In this document: positions 8,093 to 11,413 of the stretch, piece after piece
Numbering within the stretch: position 1 is the stretch's first letter
How the letters are laid out: every line of letters starts with the position of its first letter
From: a virus
Taxonomy: Monodnaviria; Loebvirae; Hofneiviricota; Faserviricetes; Tubulavirales; Inoviridae
Length of the DNA stretch: 11,866 bases
Reading direction: 5' to 3' (one strand)
Virus record (IMG/VR): IMGVR_UViG_2663762893_000001
Translations under genes and position numbers: made by a program
Notes under the pieces: generated by a model
What the model saw: the letters and a program-made list of their open reading frames with translations, nothing else
Database searches by the model: none
Told to the model about the DNA's origin: nothing

Positions 8093-9118
8093 ATGGCTAT
8101 TTCTGCATATATTGGCATACCCGGCTCAGGAAAAAGTTATGAAGCCGTTTACAATGTCATTATTCCGGCATTTACCAGCGGCCGGAGAGTTGTGACGAAC
8201 ATTTATGGTTTACAAAAAGATAAAATCACCGAACGTTATCCTGATGCAACGGGAGAAATTATTGTTGTGGATAATGATGATGTGCTTAAAGCAGATTTCT
8301 TTCCTTTTAAAGGTGGGGAAGGGAGCTTTTGCCAGTTTGGTGATTTAATTGTTATTGATGAAGCATGGCGAATCTTCGGTAGCGATAAGGATATGACGGC
8401 TGAGAAGAAATCATTTATTGCTGAACATCGTCATTTTACGCACCCTGAAACGGGTATTAGCTGTGATTTGGTTATTGTAAATCAGTCACTTTCTAATATT
8501 GCTCGCTTTCTGAAAGACAAAATAGAAACAACTTACCGGATGCGCAAGCTGAAAGCGTTGGGCCTGAATAATCATTATTGCATTGACGTATATTCAGGCC
8601 ACAAAATCTATAAAAGCAACCTCGTCACCAGTTATCGCAATAAATATAACCCTGATATTTTTGAACTTTACAAAAGTTATGAAGGAAATAACGGTAATGA
8701 AAAGCAGACAGATAAACGCCAGAGCATCTGGAATTCTGGCAAAGTCAGGTTCTTTCTTGTGCTTTTTCCATTGATGTTTATCGGGTCAGGCTGGCTGATT
8801 TACTCATTTTTCAGCACGTTTGGCCGAAGCGATCCCTCGCCAGATTTGACTACAACAGATGTACGTGATGCGGCCATGTTTCGTTCTTCCGCTGCTACTC
8901 CAGCACCAGATACTCCCTCAGAACCAGCTGAACCGCCACTTTCAACCGAGTGGCGTATATCAGGGAGAATGACCAGTGAAGGCAGGGCGTTTGTGATTCT
9001 TGTTAACGGTGCCGGTGTTTTGCGTGCCGTTCCTGCATCCAGTTTTAATTACAAAGGGATGTTGATGAGCGGAATTATTGATGGTGAGCGTGTGACGCTT
9101 TATACGGGGAAAAAATAA
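8093..9118 (+). CDS. Zot-like assembly ATPase (pI-like morphogenesis protein)
   Basis: 341 aa. N-terminal Walker A GIPGSGKSY and Walker B-like LIVIDEAW. The segment GIPGSGKS...PAFTSGRRVVTNIYGL parallels V. cholerae Zot as I recall it. Central TM segment FFLVLFPLMFIGSGWLIYSFF and Pro-rich C-terminal domain. Confidence 0.88.
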   Translation: MAISAYIGIPGSGKSYEAVYNVIIPAFTSGRRVVTNIYGLQKDKITERYPDATGEIIVVDNDDVLKADFFPFKGGEGSFCQFGDLIVIDEAWRIFGSDKDMTAEKKSFIAEHRHFTHPETGISCDLVIVNQSLSNIARFLKDKIETTYRMRKLKALGLNNHYCIDVYSGHKIYKSNLVTSYRNKYNPDIFELYKSYEGNNGNEKQTDKRQSIWNSGKVRFFLVLFPLMFIGSGWLIYSFFSTFGRSDPSPDLTTTDVRDAAMFRSSAATPAPDTPSEPAEPPLSTEWRISGRMTSEGRAFVILVNGAGVLRAVPASSFNYKGMLMSGIIDGERVTLYTGKK

Positions 9119-10362
9119 TGAAAAAGATTTTACTCGCATTAACGCTACTATTTTCTTCATGTGCTTTCGCAGGGTCAGAGCTTGAATTAAATAAAGTCAA
9201 GCTACCGGAGGCTATTTCTCTTATTTACAGTGAGGTGCTTAAAGTCCCGTATATGCTAGATCCACAGCTTGTTAATGATGAACGAATGATTACATTCAGG
9301 TTAACACCTGATATTGATGAACGGGAATTTGTAACCCGTTATCTTGGCAATATGAACATTCGAATATGGACGAAAAAGGGTGTTGATTTTATCGCGCCCT
9401 ATACGCCGAAAGAGCCGGTTAAGCCACGTTATACATGGACTTATACGCCTCAGTACCGTTCTGTTGCTTACCTGTCTGATATTCTTGGCGGCTACGTTTC
9501 AGGCTCCTTCAATAACAGTGGAGCCGTGATTTCTGACGATTCGCTAAAAGGTTCATCAGGGGCAAGCAACTACATCAATCGAACCGGTGATATTCTGGTT
9601 TATTATGGTACGAAAGAGGATATCGCCATCCTGAAAACACTGGTCACTTCGCTGGATACGATGAGTGATGAAGTGGTTGTTTCTGGTTATGTTTTTGAGG
9701 TTCAGACCTCGCAGTCTGACGGCTCCGGCATTCTTTTAGCGGCTAAAATTCTGTCTGATAAATTCAATATTTCAGTTGGTGCTGCCGGACTGGATAATTT
9801 TATCAATATTCGAACCGGCTCCATTGATGCCATTTTCAATCTGCTGAAAACCGACAGTCGTTTTACTGTTGTCAGTGCGCCACGACTGCGGGTAAAAAAT
9901 AATGCCTCAGCGTCTTTTTCAGTCGGCTCTGATGTGCCAGTACTGGGCAGTGTTACGGTGAATAACAATACGACAACGCAATCCGTTGAATATCGTTCCA
10001 GCGGTGTTTTGTTTAACGTGACGCCATCAATCAAAAGTCGGACAATGGATCTCAAGATTCAGCAGCAGCTTTCCAACTTTGTGACCACTGAAACCGGCGT
10101 CAATAACTCGCCAACCCTTATCAAGCGTGATGTAACAACCGAAGTCAGCCTTGCAGATGGTGATATTATTTTACTTGGTGGCCTTGCTGAACAGAAAGAC
10201 AGTAAGGCCAGTTCCGGCTGGAGCTTCTTCGGTTCCCGTACCAGTGAAAGCAACAAGACTGATATTATGGTGATGCTTCAGGTCAGAAAGGTTGACCGGA
10301 GCAGGGCGACGCCCCGCAGCGCCGCGAGGAGCGGTGAACTGTTCCGGGACAACCTGAACTGA
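9118..10362 (+). CDS. Secretin (pIV-like outer-membrane export channel)
   Basis: 414 aa. ATG overlaps the pI stop (TAATG at 9116-9120). N-terminal signal peptide MKKILLALTLLFSSCAFAG. C-terminal secretin-type region VVSAPRLRVKNNASASFSVGSDVPVL ... LADGDIILLGGL. Confidence 0.88.
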   Translation: MKKILLALTLLFSSCAFAGSELELNKVKLPEAISLIYSEVLKVPYMLDPQLVNDERMITFRLTPDIDEREFVTRYLGNMNIRIWTKKGVDFIAPYTPKEPVKPRYTWTYTPQYRSVAYLSDILGGYVSGSFNNSGAVISDDSLKGSSGASNYINRTGDILVYYGTKEDIAILKTLVTSLDTMSDEVVVSGYVFEVQTSQSDGSGILLAAKILSDKFNISVGAAGLDNFINIRTGSIDAIFNLLKTDSRFTVVSAPRLRVKNNASASFSVGSDVPVLGSVTVNNNTTTQSVEYRSSGVLFNVTPSIKSRTMDLKIQQQLSNFVTTETGVNNSPTLIKRDVTTEVSLADGDIILLGGLAEQKDSKASSGWSFFGSRTSESNKTDIMVMLQVRKVDRSRATPRSAARSGELFRDNLN

Positions 10363-10450
10363 TTGTATGGATTTTTATTATGGCGTTAACTTTTATGGGG
10401 TATGAACAGTACGACATCTTCTAGGTATTCAGTTACTTAGAGGATTTATT

Positions 10451-10699
10451 ATGTCTGTAAAAAATAAGGCGCGTGACCGACTTCCCGGTGGACGCCTTAA
10501 GTCTTATCGTCGTGTAGGTTCACATTTTGCCAGTTGTGCCAGATGGTTTGATAAATCGCCGTCCTGGTATCGCAATATGATGATGACCAGGCCTGAGCGT
10601 CGTGAAGTCAGAAGGCTTCTCAATCAGGTAATGCGTGGTCATGATGCTGACGGCATTGCTTTTCCGGTCAGTCATCGTCCGTTTGTTTATTGGTGGTGA
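10451..10699 (+). CDS. Hypothetical arginine-rich small protein (82 aa)
   Basis: Strong GAGGA RBS 6 nt upstream of the ATG. Basic, Arg/Trp-rich composition. No homolog recognised. Confidence 0.5.
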   Translation: MSVKNKARDRLPGGRLKSYRRVGSHFASCARWFDKSPSWYRNMMMTRPERREVRRLLNQVMRGHDADGIAFPVSHRPFVYWW

Positions 10700-10844
10700 A
10701 TTTCGTACGCACGAAATTTCACGCATAAACACCAGACAAAAAATCGTTAACTGTCTGTTTTGAAAGATAACGCCGGTCAGTGACAAAACTTGTTTTGTTG
10801 CTGTCCGGGGTTGGCCAAGCCGTACAGTTTCCATTTTCAGCGTT

Positions 10845-11093
10845 ATGGCTGATTCGGCGCGGCAGCATTCATCGGGGCTTATCATGGAAAAATTCATGAC
10901 ACATCAGGAGCTGAAAGTGATGCTTCTCAAAGATCCAGCATTCCGGGCTGCTTATGAAGCTGAGAGCCAGAACCCGCAATCCGGTTACCAGATTATCCGG
11001 CATCATGGTGATGGCACTGAAGAAGTGGTGTTTGATTCTCGTGTATCAGGTACAGATTTACCAACTAACTGGATGAACAGGCCTGATTGGTGA
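10845..11093 (+). CDS. Hypothetical small protein (82 aa from first ATG; alternative ATG at 10884 gives 69 aa)
   Basis: ORF in phage-side DNA just upstream of dif. Weak RBS at either start. No homolog recognised. Confidence 0.35.
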   Translation: MADSARQHSSGLIMEKFMTHQELKVMLLKDPAFRAAYEAESQNPQSGYQIIRHHGDGTEEVVFDSRVSGTDLPTNWMNRPDW

Positions 11094-11233
11094 GGTCAGG
11101 CCGTTCACTTACTGCTGACAGACATTTGATTCTGATTCGTTTGGAGAAACGGATGATTTTGAATCACTGTCGATAGTAGCCAGTTGACGGCCAGTGTCAA
11201 CGATTCCCGCCAGATTCTGCCATCCTTACCATT

Positions 11234-11261
11234 GGTGCGCATAATGTATATTATGTTAAAT
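11234..11261 (+). other. dif: dif / attR: canonical 28-bp chromosome dimer resolution site (XerC/XerD)
   Basis: Exact match to GGTGCGCATAATGTATATTATGTTAAAT, the E. coli dif sequence. Confidence 0.93.
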
Positions 11262-11413
11262 TGCCTGTGAAGGTCCTTTACTTCACCATTCACATCCACA
11301 CACAGATAAATCAATACGTTGTGATTTCTGACTTCCCTCCCGTTTCGGTAGAAAAATTCAACCTCTGTTCAGTGATGGCACACCATAGACCATGAGTTGG
11401 ATAATTGCGTTGT

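Follow-up and report, generated by a model that had tools for sequence, protein, structure and literature searches.

A leader open reading frame and a Shine-Dalgarno-pairing hairpin precede a conserved small basic protein gene in CUS-1/YpfPhi-type filamentous prophages

Here, we analyze a gene for a basic protein of 82 amino acids (aa) in IMG/VR virus record IMGVR_UViG_2663762893_000001 (hereafter the window, meaning the whole stretch of 11,866 nucleotides), an Escherichia coli chromosomal segment in which a CUS-1/YpfPhi-type filamentous prophage (inovirus) is integrated at dif. The gene is preceded by a short leader open reading frame (ORF) and by a hairpin in which its own Shine-Dalgarno (SD) sequence is paired. 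Both elements are conserved and specific to one strand, and they occur in specific association with the family to which the 82-aa protein belongs. On balance, we favor a reading in which the gene is a genuine accessory gene of this phage type, represents an undescribed protein family and is probably translated in a manner coupled to the leader ORF. The gene itself has already been annotated, and it has been mentioned as an ORF of unknown function; the wider family and the element made up of the leader and the hidden ribosome-binding site (RBS) are new. The coordinates of all features are collected in Table 1.

Several lines of evidence demonstrate that the 82-aa ORF is a genuine gene under purifying selection. 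First, the ratio of nonsynonymous to synonymous changes (dN/dS), summed by the Nei-Gojobori method over 22 distinct 82-codon genes, is 0.12 in the annotated frame, while four other frames give 1.35 to 1.46 and the mirror frame on the antisense strand gives 0.26; variable columns are distributed 42/37/72 over the three codon positions. Second, Salmonella, Pantoea, Brenneria, Morganella and Xenorhabdus were each found by a protein search to have homologs (68 to 98% identity), and the length of 82 aa is kept in most sampled relatives from at least seven genera, including homologs of only 68 to 79% identity; the Pectobacterium homolog has 79 aa. Third, the main protein cluster has 246 members, while truncated or frameshifted variants fall into clusters of 1 to 6 (P0009, P0011, P0015, P0025-P0029 and P0034). 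Fourth, the ORF is present in 116 of 5,426 complete E. coli genomes, always as a full-length match, and is annotated as a coding sequence in all matches listed. Conservation in related prophages, which the original prediction had named as a check, is accordingly seen as an intact ORF in most of them, and disrupted forms of the ORF are confined to the small clusters.

The reading frame, its ATG start and the 82-aa translation are exactly as originally predicted, as is the position of the gene between the secretin gene and attR. The description of the product as very basic and rich in Arg and Trp also holds, with 14 Arg, 4 Lys and 4 Trp residues, a net charge of about +12, an isoelectric point of 11.5 and a mass of 9.9 kDa. 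The RefSeq counterpart, WP_001399975.1, is a "hypothetical protein" with 100% identity in E. coli. The copy in Yersinia pestis NCTC5923 (YpfPhi) is also 100% identical, and we take the ORF to be YPO2280a of YpfPhi, a name that was matched by position. A 125-aa antisense ORF at 10520-10897 was considered as a gene and rejected as an artefact because its frame mirrors the real one and because of the dN/dS comparison given above.

The 82-aa gene directly follows the secretin gene in every inovirus locus examined, including an IKe-like prophage of E. coli A20 and prophages of Morganella. This position is kept despite different replication proteins, i.e., Phage_GPA in Xenorhabdus and Pectobacterium, Rep_trans in Morganella and the II/X family in E. 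coli, and despite different coat modules. The downstream neighbor, by contrast, is variable and can be a 65-aa ORF, a minus-strand ORF or toxin-antitoxin (TA) genes. Because the gene occupies the same place behind the secretin gene with three replication modules, its behavior is that of a conserved module in enterobacterial inoviruses that integrate at dif, and not that of strain-specific cargo. Thus, the suggestion that it represents variable cargo comparable to ctxAB was not borne out, given this constant position and the occurrence of the family also on plasmids, integrative elements and tailed-phage contigs. A review of YpfPhi lists YPO2280a and YPO2281 as two attR-adjacent ORFs with "no predictable functions" (PMC4266046). 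The paper on UPphi reports a pair of new genes (h1 and h2) in this region of integrating phages of the IKe-like type, and reports that the non-integrating relatives IKe and I2-2 are without genes of this region (PMC7307601). Literature searches turned up no functional study of the 82-aa gene, and neither the YpfPhi review (PMC4266046) nor the literature searched describes the wider family, the leader ORF or the hairpin.

The stop codon of the leader ORF, TAG at 10422-10424, lies inside the 5' arm of the hairpin, and the AUG of the 82-aa gene is 26 nt downstream of this stop codon (24 to 29 nt in relatives). Apart from Pectobacterium, all inovirus relatives examined have an ORF of 13 to 14 codons ending in G-Y-E-Q-x-D-I-F-stop; in Pectobacterium, the upstream ORF is a different one, with 18 codons and likewise terminated by TAG. 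In one Morganella locus, the end of the leader reads GYEMQDIF. In the last eight leader codons, the ratio of nonsynonymous to synonymous polymorphism (pN/pS) is 0.11 as opposed to 2.0 to 2.4 in the other frames, and five codons alternate synonymously (GGA/GGG, GAA/GAG, CAG/CAA, GAC/GAT and ATC/ATT), as does the stop codon (TAG/TAA).

Leaders of this kind are also found far from the inoviruses. Leaders ending in D-I-F-stop precede homologs of only ∼40% identity in other element types (loci L010, L055, L056, L094, L095 and L097), and the motif Y-x-[EQ]-x-D-I-F-stop recurs in distant loci. Written without their stop codons, the leaders of remote homologs include MYYYAEDIF, MNYFAEDIF, MDIF and MNYWEIDIRS, and the shortest are MLF, MRF, MRL, MRM, MTM, MT, ML and the bare start-stop M. 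Most of the remote leaders have a good SD sequence, and GTA or ATA usually comes right after the stop codon. Using strict criteria, i.e., an SD-led mini-ORF of at most 16 codons that ends 12 to 36 nt upstream of the gene, we detected a mini-ORF in 27 of 47 family loci, compared to 92 of 1,551 control sites with SD and ATG in the same loci (5.9%; binomial probability 2e-21). The prediction of a mini-ORF also held in six loci that were fetched afterwards, in which the leaders read MYLLQEHF on a Salmonella plasmid, M on an Acetobacter plasmid, a longer peptide ending in LDSL on a Proteus plasmid, MMLYWYRSLDIF in L094, MHYLDQDIF in L095 and a peptide ending in SYDIF in L097. In 22 remote loci, the leader stop codon is TAG in 19, TAA in 3 and TGA in 0. 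This TAG excess at the mini-ORF stops (L009-L097) is far above expectation, and partial pairing constraints are the only explanation that we found.

In the SD-sequestering hairpin, the last two leader codons together with the leader stop codon lie in the 5' arm, and the 3' arm contains the SD sequence of the 82-aa gene. The minimum free energy (MFE) of the RNA is −14.7 kcal/mol on the plus strand (z = −3.8; 0 of 200 shuffles as stable) and only −7.1 kcal/mol on the minus strand (z = −1.3). Across 19 distinct relatives, 97.3% of the cells of the stem alignment are paired, compared to 40 to 58% when the partner is slid, and two stem pairs have compensatory changes, e.g., CTAAATA/TATTTAG in Xenorhabdus BG5. 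Because several stem pairs are G:U and would be A:C on the other strand, the stem is specific to the plus strand. A covariance model built from inovirus leaders only scored 67 to 69 bits upstream of the gene on the plus strand and 15 bits on the minus strand in the 732 kb searched. The model also found two remote leaders, L094 (E = 5.5e-4) and L010 (E = 0.08), and otherwise gave only 15-bit echoes of the same palindrome on the minus strand and one 14.6-bit match at E = 0.98. The same hairpin is present upstream of homologs on double-stranded DNA elements, which argues that it acts in the mRNA and not as a single-stranded DNA phage signal. As for the original description of the gene as well initiated by a strong RBS, the GAGGA does stand 6 nt before the ATG; however, it is base-paired in this conserved hairpin with a predicted probability of being unpaired of only 0.02. 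Two other roles considered for this region were rejected, namely a transcription terminator, as relatives are without a U-run after the hairpin, and a promoter in single-stranded DNA, as the gene lies on the packaged plus strand.

Because the GAGGA is paired in a conserved hairpin and the leader ORF ends inside this hairpin, translation of the 82-aa gene looks gated and not free, and we infer translation of the leader and gating of the gene by it. In the model that we suggest, a long plus-strand operon probably has the 82-aa gene as its last cistron, in line with the gap of only 17 nt between the secretin stop codon and the leader ATG. With the hairpin in place, initiation de novo at 10451 would be blocked. 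Once a ribosome on the leader reached the UAG, it would open the 5' arm, thereby exposing the SD sequence 16 nt further on, and the same or a new ribosome would then start on the 82-aa gene. Gating could be a matter of simple coupling that depends on termination, or the ribosome could pause at D-I-F-stop in a manner dependent on the peptide or on termination. UAG is read only by release factor 1 (RF1), and the conserved D-I-F peptide together with the preference for UAG may point to termination itself as the regulated step.

Some observations weigh against this model. The codons AUC UUC UAG constitute the anti-SD arm that pairs with AGAGGAU, and part of the I-F-stop conservation is, therefore, explained by RNA pairing alone; an argument for a function of the peptide would rest on Y-x-[EQ]-x-D, which is not part of the stem and which distant loci again encode with other nucleotides. 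The leader's own SD sequence is weak in the window (GGA, 8 nt upstream) and strong in many relatives. Moreover, ∼40% of the remote loci are without a strict mini-ORF, and some of these genes are overlapped by a longer upstream ORF instead, while the family loci are related by phylogeny so that the mini-ORF counts overstate independence. Finally, sequestration of the SD sequence is not clearly above controls in the most remote members: the median probability of being unpaired is 0.25 for the family and 0.39 for the controls (p = 0.004), a difference driven by the close subgroup. Inoviruses and some other members clearly show strong sequestration.

Close to the leader, two sigma-70-like promoter matches are present on the minus strand just upstream (10406>10377 and 10389>10362); both point into the 3' end of the secretin gene and away from the leader. 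Promoter-like sites in the scanned 1.3-kb region number 6 as opposed to 1.7 expected. Rfam gave no match to an antisense RNA family at the leader, with chance matches only at E ≤ 10.

Based on sequence comparisons, the 82-aa protein is a member of a widespread, so far undescribed family of small basic proteins that is borne by mobile elements and is without a Pfam model. A profile search of 1.8 billion representative proteins identified 153 related clusters at E ≤ 1e-3. The members are basic proteins of 50 to 146 aa that share a C-terminal core of ∼50 residues, which ends exactly at the C-terminus and corresponds to residues ∼35 to 82 of the 82-aa protein. The core has the consensus [ST]-P-x-W-W-x-N-x-x-M-T-R-P-x-R-R ... 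G-x-D-x-D ... F-P-L-x-x-K-P-H-x-Y-Y-W, and the 82-aa protein follows the looser pattern P-x-W-[WY]..[MT]-x-R-P-x-R-R ... [FW]-P ... P-x-x-Y-[YW]-[WYF] right up to its last residue. In an alignment of 131 sequences, M1, P37, P48, R50, P72, P77 and Y80 are at least 90% conserved. The family is found on 34 IMG/VR contigs of 5 to 250 kb with 33 to 68% GC, on plasmids (Salmonella IncFIB, Acetobacter/Komagataeibacter and Proteus MOBQ) and in integrase-bearing islands, with an own tyrosine integrase in L050, L094 and L095; in some loci, members adjoin TA modules and ParA. On tailed-phage contigs, some members adjoin tail-fiber, J-like, tape-measure and endolysin genes; because simple ORF calling of neighbors gave spurious ORFs in high-GC contigs, only clear tail-fiber, J-like and tape-measure neighbors were counted. 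Among cultured phage genomes, the phage GenBank collection contains essentially no homolog except one 3.6-kb Salmonella fragment. The presence of members on plasmids, integrative elements and tailed-phage contigs makes a role in inovirus assembly unlikely, and these broad contexts argue against a specific role in either inovirus assembly or Xer recombination.

Profile libraries provided little guidance to the function of the family. The 82-aa protein has no Pfam match at E ≤ 1, and scans of Pfam, PHROGs, NCBIfam and PADLOC with this protein and ten remote homologs gave no usable match. The best PHROG match was phrog_12343, a family of unknown function, at E = 0.001, other PHROG matches were weak and to families that are also of unknown function, and NCBIfam and PADLOC gave sub-threshold noise only. 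PDB sequence-profile searches gave no match, and no structural neighbors were found for the AlphaFold2 model of the protein. This model, based on the 131-sequence alignment, has a predicted local distance difference test (pLDDT) score of 78.5 and a predicted template modeling score of 0.49, with helices at residues 22-30 and 38-61 and extended N- and C-terminal tails; a shallow alignment gave a poor model (pLDDT 51). The model is non-compact, consisting of helices and tails, and the protein contains the Arg-rich helix TRPERREVRRLL.

For an Arg-rich, largely extended helical protein with a charge of +12, nucleic-acid binding is the simplest reading in terms of composition. We tentatively propose that the product might be a low-abundance nucleic-acid-binding protein, in that case most likely RNA-binding, and that it could act as a regulator or modulator in the host cytoplasm and not as a part of the virion or its assembly. 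It counts against this proposal that Pfam, PDB profile and structure searches revealed no similarity to a known DNA- or RNA-binding family or fold. General profile-library scans, in which the protein was not compared with the RstC sequence itself, also gave no match to an RstC-type anti-repressor. The original suggestions of nucleic-acid binding and of an anti-repressor or packaging role are, for now, speculative.

A different, and in our view unlikely, explanation is that the gene encodes a tightly restrained toxic or growth-modulating effector involved in addiction, exclusion or host takeover, and that leader and hairpin keep its synthesis very low as in mok/hok-type coupling. Leader-ORF coupling with a hidden SD sequence is typical of dangerous genes, such as mok/hok and tap/repA. 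Also, the homologs are often found beside TA modules in accessory regions of plasmids and islands, and the gene stands alone without a conserved partner. However, TA neighbors are common for any accessory gene, neither an antisense RNA nor an antitoxin partner was identified, and there is no match to a toxin family in PADLOC, Pfam or NCBIfam. Moreover, sequence inspection revealed no hydrophobic segment like those of type I toxins in this protein with its net charge of +12, which, thus, differs from hok-like type I toxins in not being a short hydrophobic membrane peptide. More speculative still, and distinctly improbable, is a scenario in which the family is an unrecognized mobile-element effector that is switched by a translational sensor, with the basic protein acting on RNA or the ribosome. 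The sensor would be the TAG mini-ORF, one branch of which encodes Y-x-[EQ]-x-D-I-F, and pausing or termination on it would vary with the translation state of the host, such as how active RF1 is, how ribosomes are recycled or whether a small molecule is present.

We consider it very unlikely that the protein is an accessory factor for XerCD integration or excision at dif, with a role analogous to that of XafT of TLCphi. The location of the gene in the attP-proximal region of dif-integrating inoviruses fits such a role, as does the lack of genes of this region in the non-integrating phages IKe and I2-2 (PMC7307601). By contrast, the protein has no DUF3653, helix-turn-helix (HTH) or other Pfam match, members are present in the elements with their own tyrosine integrase (L050, L094 and L095), and other members are encoded in small MOBQ plasmids and in tail and lysis regions of tailed phages, where Xer activation is unexpected.

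Also very unlikely is the idea that the hairpin and the "leader" are DNA-level phage signals, i.e., an operator, a packaging signal or a minus-strand origin, and that the upstream ORF is incidental. In Ff phages, the packaging signal and the origins follow gene IV. The hairpin comes close to a palindrome, and the compensatory changes keep a DNA palindrome as well as an RNA stem. However, the G:U (G:T) pairs confer strand specificity on the structure, homologs on double-stranded plasmids, islands and tailed-phage contigs are preceded by the same arrangement, the leader is under codon-level purifying selection outside the stem, and the leader stop codon is always inside the 5' arm. Lastly, the notion that the 82-aa ORF is a chance reading frame in non-coding intergenic DNA, for which truncated or frameshifted database entries and the lack of a known function or domain could be cited, is effectively refuted by the low dN/dS in the annotated frame only, the length kept in distant homologs, the size of the main cluster relative to those of the disrupted variants and the 153-cluster family.

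Table 1. Features around the 82-aa gene and attachment sites of the prophage (positions in the window)
Feature	Position	Strand	Details
attL	start 1666		hybrid site GGTGCGCATAATGTGCGACTCGTTATGTTGAAA
Secretin gene	end 10362	+	
Leader mini-ORF	10380..10424	+	14 codons and stop; MALTFMGYEQYDIF; ATG GCG TTA ACT TTT ATG GGG TAT GAA CAG TAC GAC ATC TTC TAG
SD-sequestering hairpin	10416..10445	+	12 bp; 5' arm 10416-10427 ATCTTCTAGGTA; loop TTCAGT; 3' arm 10434-10445 TACTTAGAGGAT
SD sequence of 82-aa gene	10440-10444	+	GAGGA; 6 nt before ATG; within 3' arm of the hairpin
82-aa basic protein gene	10451..10699	+	ATG start; stop TGA 10697-10699
Imperfect stop-codon hairpin	10684..10731	+	inner arms 10696-10706 / 10711-10722; outer arms TGTTTAT / ATAAACA
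17-bp imperfect inverted repeat	10769-10812		AACGCCGGTCAGTGACAAAAC / GTTTTGTTGCTGTCCGGGGTT; −27.2 kcal/mol, z = −4.3
Second attR-proximal ORF	10884/10896-11093	+	65-69 aa; WP_001298440.1; phrog_6642 match, E = 1e-53
attR	11234-11261		perfect 28-bp E. coli dif

Two further structures are located at and beyond the end of the gene. The stop codon does lie inside an imperfect hairpin, as originally predicted; the inner arms are GTGAATTTCGT and ACGAAATTTCAC with one bulged T, and the TGA is in the 5' arm. Including the outer stem, the RNA has an MFE of −16 kcal/mol (z = −2.85; 1 of 200 shuffles as stable). The further suggestion that transcripts end at this hairpin lacks good evidence. The hairpin is followed by CCAGACAAAAAATC on the plus strand and by no T-run on the minus strand, it has no U-tract on either strand, and a terminator scan did not call it. 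In distant relatives, the stop codon is no longer the site of this hairpin; in Brenneria (L028), one like it comes ∼20 nt beyond the stop codon, and other relatives have a different small hairpin. Thus, this hairpin is real but modest and not a canonical intrinsic terminator, a function that we rejected because of the missing U-tract and the lack of conservation. It was also rejected as attP, given the positions of attL and attR. The inverted repeat at 10769-10812 is almost invariant in the E. coli, Yersinia, Salmonella-type, Pantoea and Brenneria relatives and is a better candidate than the stop-codon hairpin for a packaging or minus-strand-origin signal.

Over positions 9900-11400, the window matches E. 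coli SCU-101 and O2:K2:H1 C 237-04 at 100% identity and UTI89 at 99.7%. According to the RefSeq annotation of the identical region, the gene order of repressor, gII, gV, coat genes, zot-like gI and secretin is the usual one for inoviruses, and two "hypothetical proteins" are encoded between the secretin gene and dif. The window has an uninterrupted ORF of 341 aa for the zot-like gene I (8093-9118), which is annotated as frameshifted in both tandem copies of C 237-04 (L001). The attL site (1666-1698) reads GGTGCGCATAA TGTGCGACTCG TTATGTTGAAA, with a XerC arm identical to that of dif and an odd, longer central region, and an attL-type sequence is also present at the tandem-copy junction of strain C 237-04. 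A circular 9,565-bp copy of the same phage, presumably the replicative form, has been deposited as an E. coli "untypable plasmid" (NZ_CP128883.1, L091), and the phage is present in tandem inside a 248-kb IncFIB/IncHI1B plasmid of Klebsiella pneumoniae (NZ_CP132684.1, L093). In E. coli ETEC-2264 (L053), truncated and repeated units of repressor, gII and partial gV, which resemble an RS1-like satellite array, are found upstream of a complete prophage, and further integrase-bearing elements are stacked at dif beyond the 82-aa gene. We take the second attR-proximal ORF to be the homolog of YPO2281; the N-terminus of its product (HQELKVMLLKDPAFRAAYEA) is similar to the beginning of many small proteins of the antitoxin or XRE-like kind, and the linkage of this ORF to the secretin gene is less consistent than that of the 82-aa gene. 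A weak Rfam match to the OrzO-P antitoxin RNA on the minus strand at 11075-11171 (21 bits vs a gathering score of 60; E = 1.1) is most likely due to chance.

YpfPhi and CUS-1 are filamentous prophages linked to the fitness of the plague bacillus and of neonatal-meningitis and urinary E. coli, and both attR-proximal ORFs are among the phage ORFs that the literature points out as lacking an assigned function. For the first ORF, the analysis now shows that it is under selection and that it is a member of a broad family common to inoviruses, plasmids, islands and tailed phages. The conserved leader ORF and the hidden RBS turn an anonymous ORF into a testable unit, and the family merits a profile model so that its members are no longer annotated as isolated "hypothetical proteins". 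The mini-ORF with its D-I-F-stop or TAG end may also represent a new example of sensing at the level of translation.

Among known genes, the closest counterpart of the 82-aa gene is YPO2280a of YpfPhi and the corresponding ORF of CUS-1, i.e., the first of two ORFs next to attR (PMC4266046), and the Y. pestis copy does not differ in sequence. The h1 and h2 genes of UPphi resemble it as genes without known function in a region that is intergenic in IKe, I2-2 and M13; this likeness is one of position. XafT (DUF3653) of TLCphi is a Xer activation factor; this small protein has its gene close to attP in a filamentous element that integrates at dif. The 82-aa gene is similar in its small size and attP-proximal place; however, its product has no sequence or domain similarity to XafT, and the family is spread far beyond Xer-dependent elements. 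In being small, very basic and largely non-globular with an Arg-rich helix, the 82-aa protein is reminiscent in composition of the λ N-type RNA binders with Arg-rich motifs, except that it has no match to that sequence family and no nut/boxB-like target was identified.

The arrangement of leader and hairpin is reminiscent of tap-repA of plasmid R1 and repY-repZ of ColIb-P9/IncI, in which leader peptides couple the translation of plasmid replication genes (PMC8053102). In these systems and, as seen in sequence, at the 82-aa gene, the downstream RBS is hidden by a structure at or inside which a short upstream ORF comes to its end. In the plasmid systems, the downstream gene is, as a result, translated only in dependence on the leader. 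By contrast, no antisense RNA or pseudoknot was found at the 82-aa gene, the gene behind the leader is not a replication initiator, and the leader has the conserved C-terminal motif Y-x-[EQ]-x-D-I-F and a stop codon that is predominantly UAG. The λ bar minigenes are a bacterial example of minigene elements, and short start-stop elements are known in E. coli (10.1101/520783). The SD-led ORFs of 1 to 3 codons upstream of remote family members (M, MT, ML, MRL and MLF, each followed by a stop codon) are similar to such elements; in contrast to these, the mini-ORFs described here go with a single protein family, even though the elements and their GC contents differ widely.

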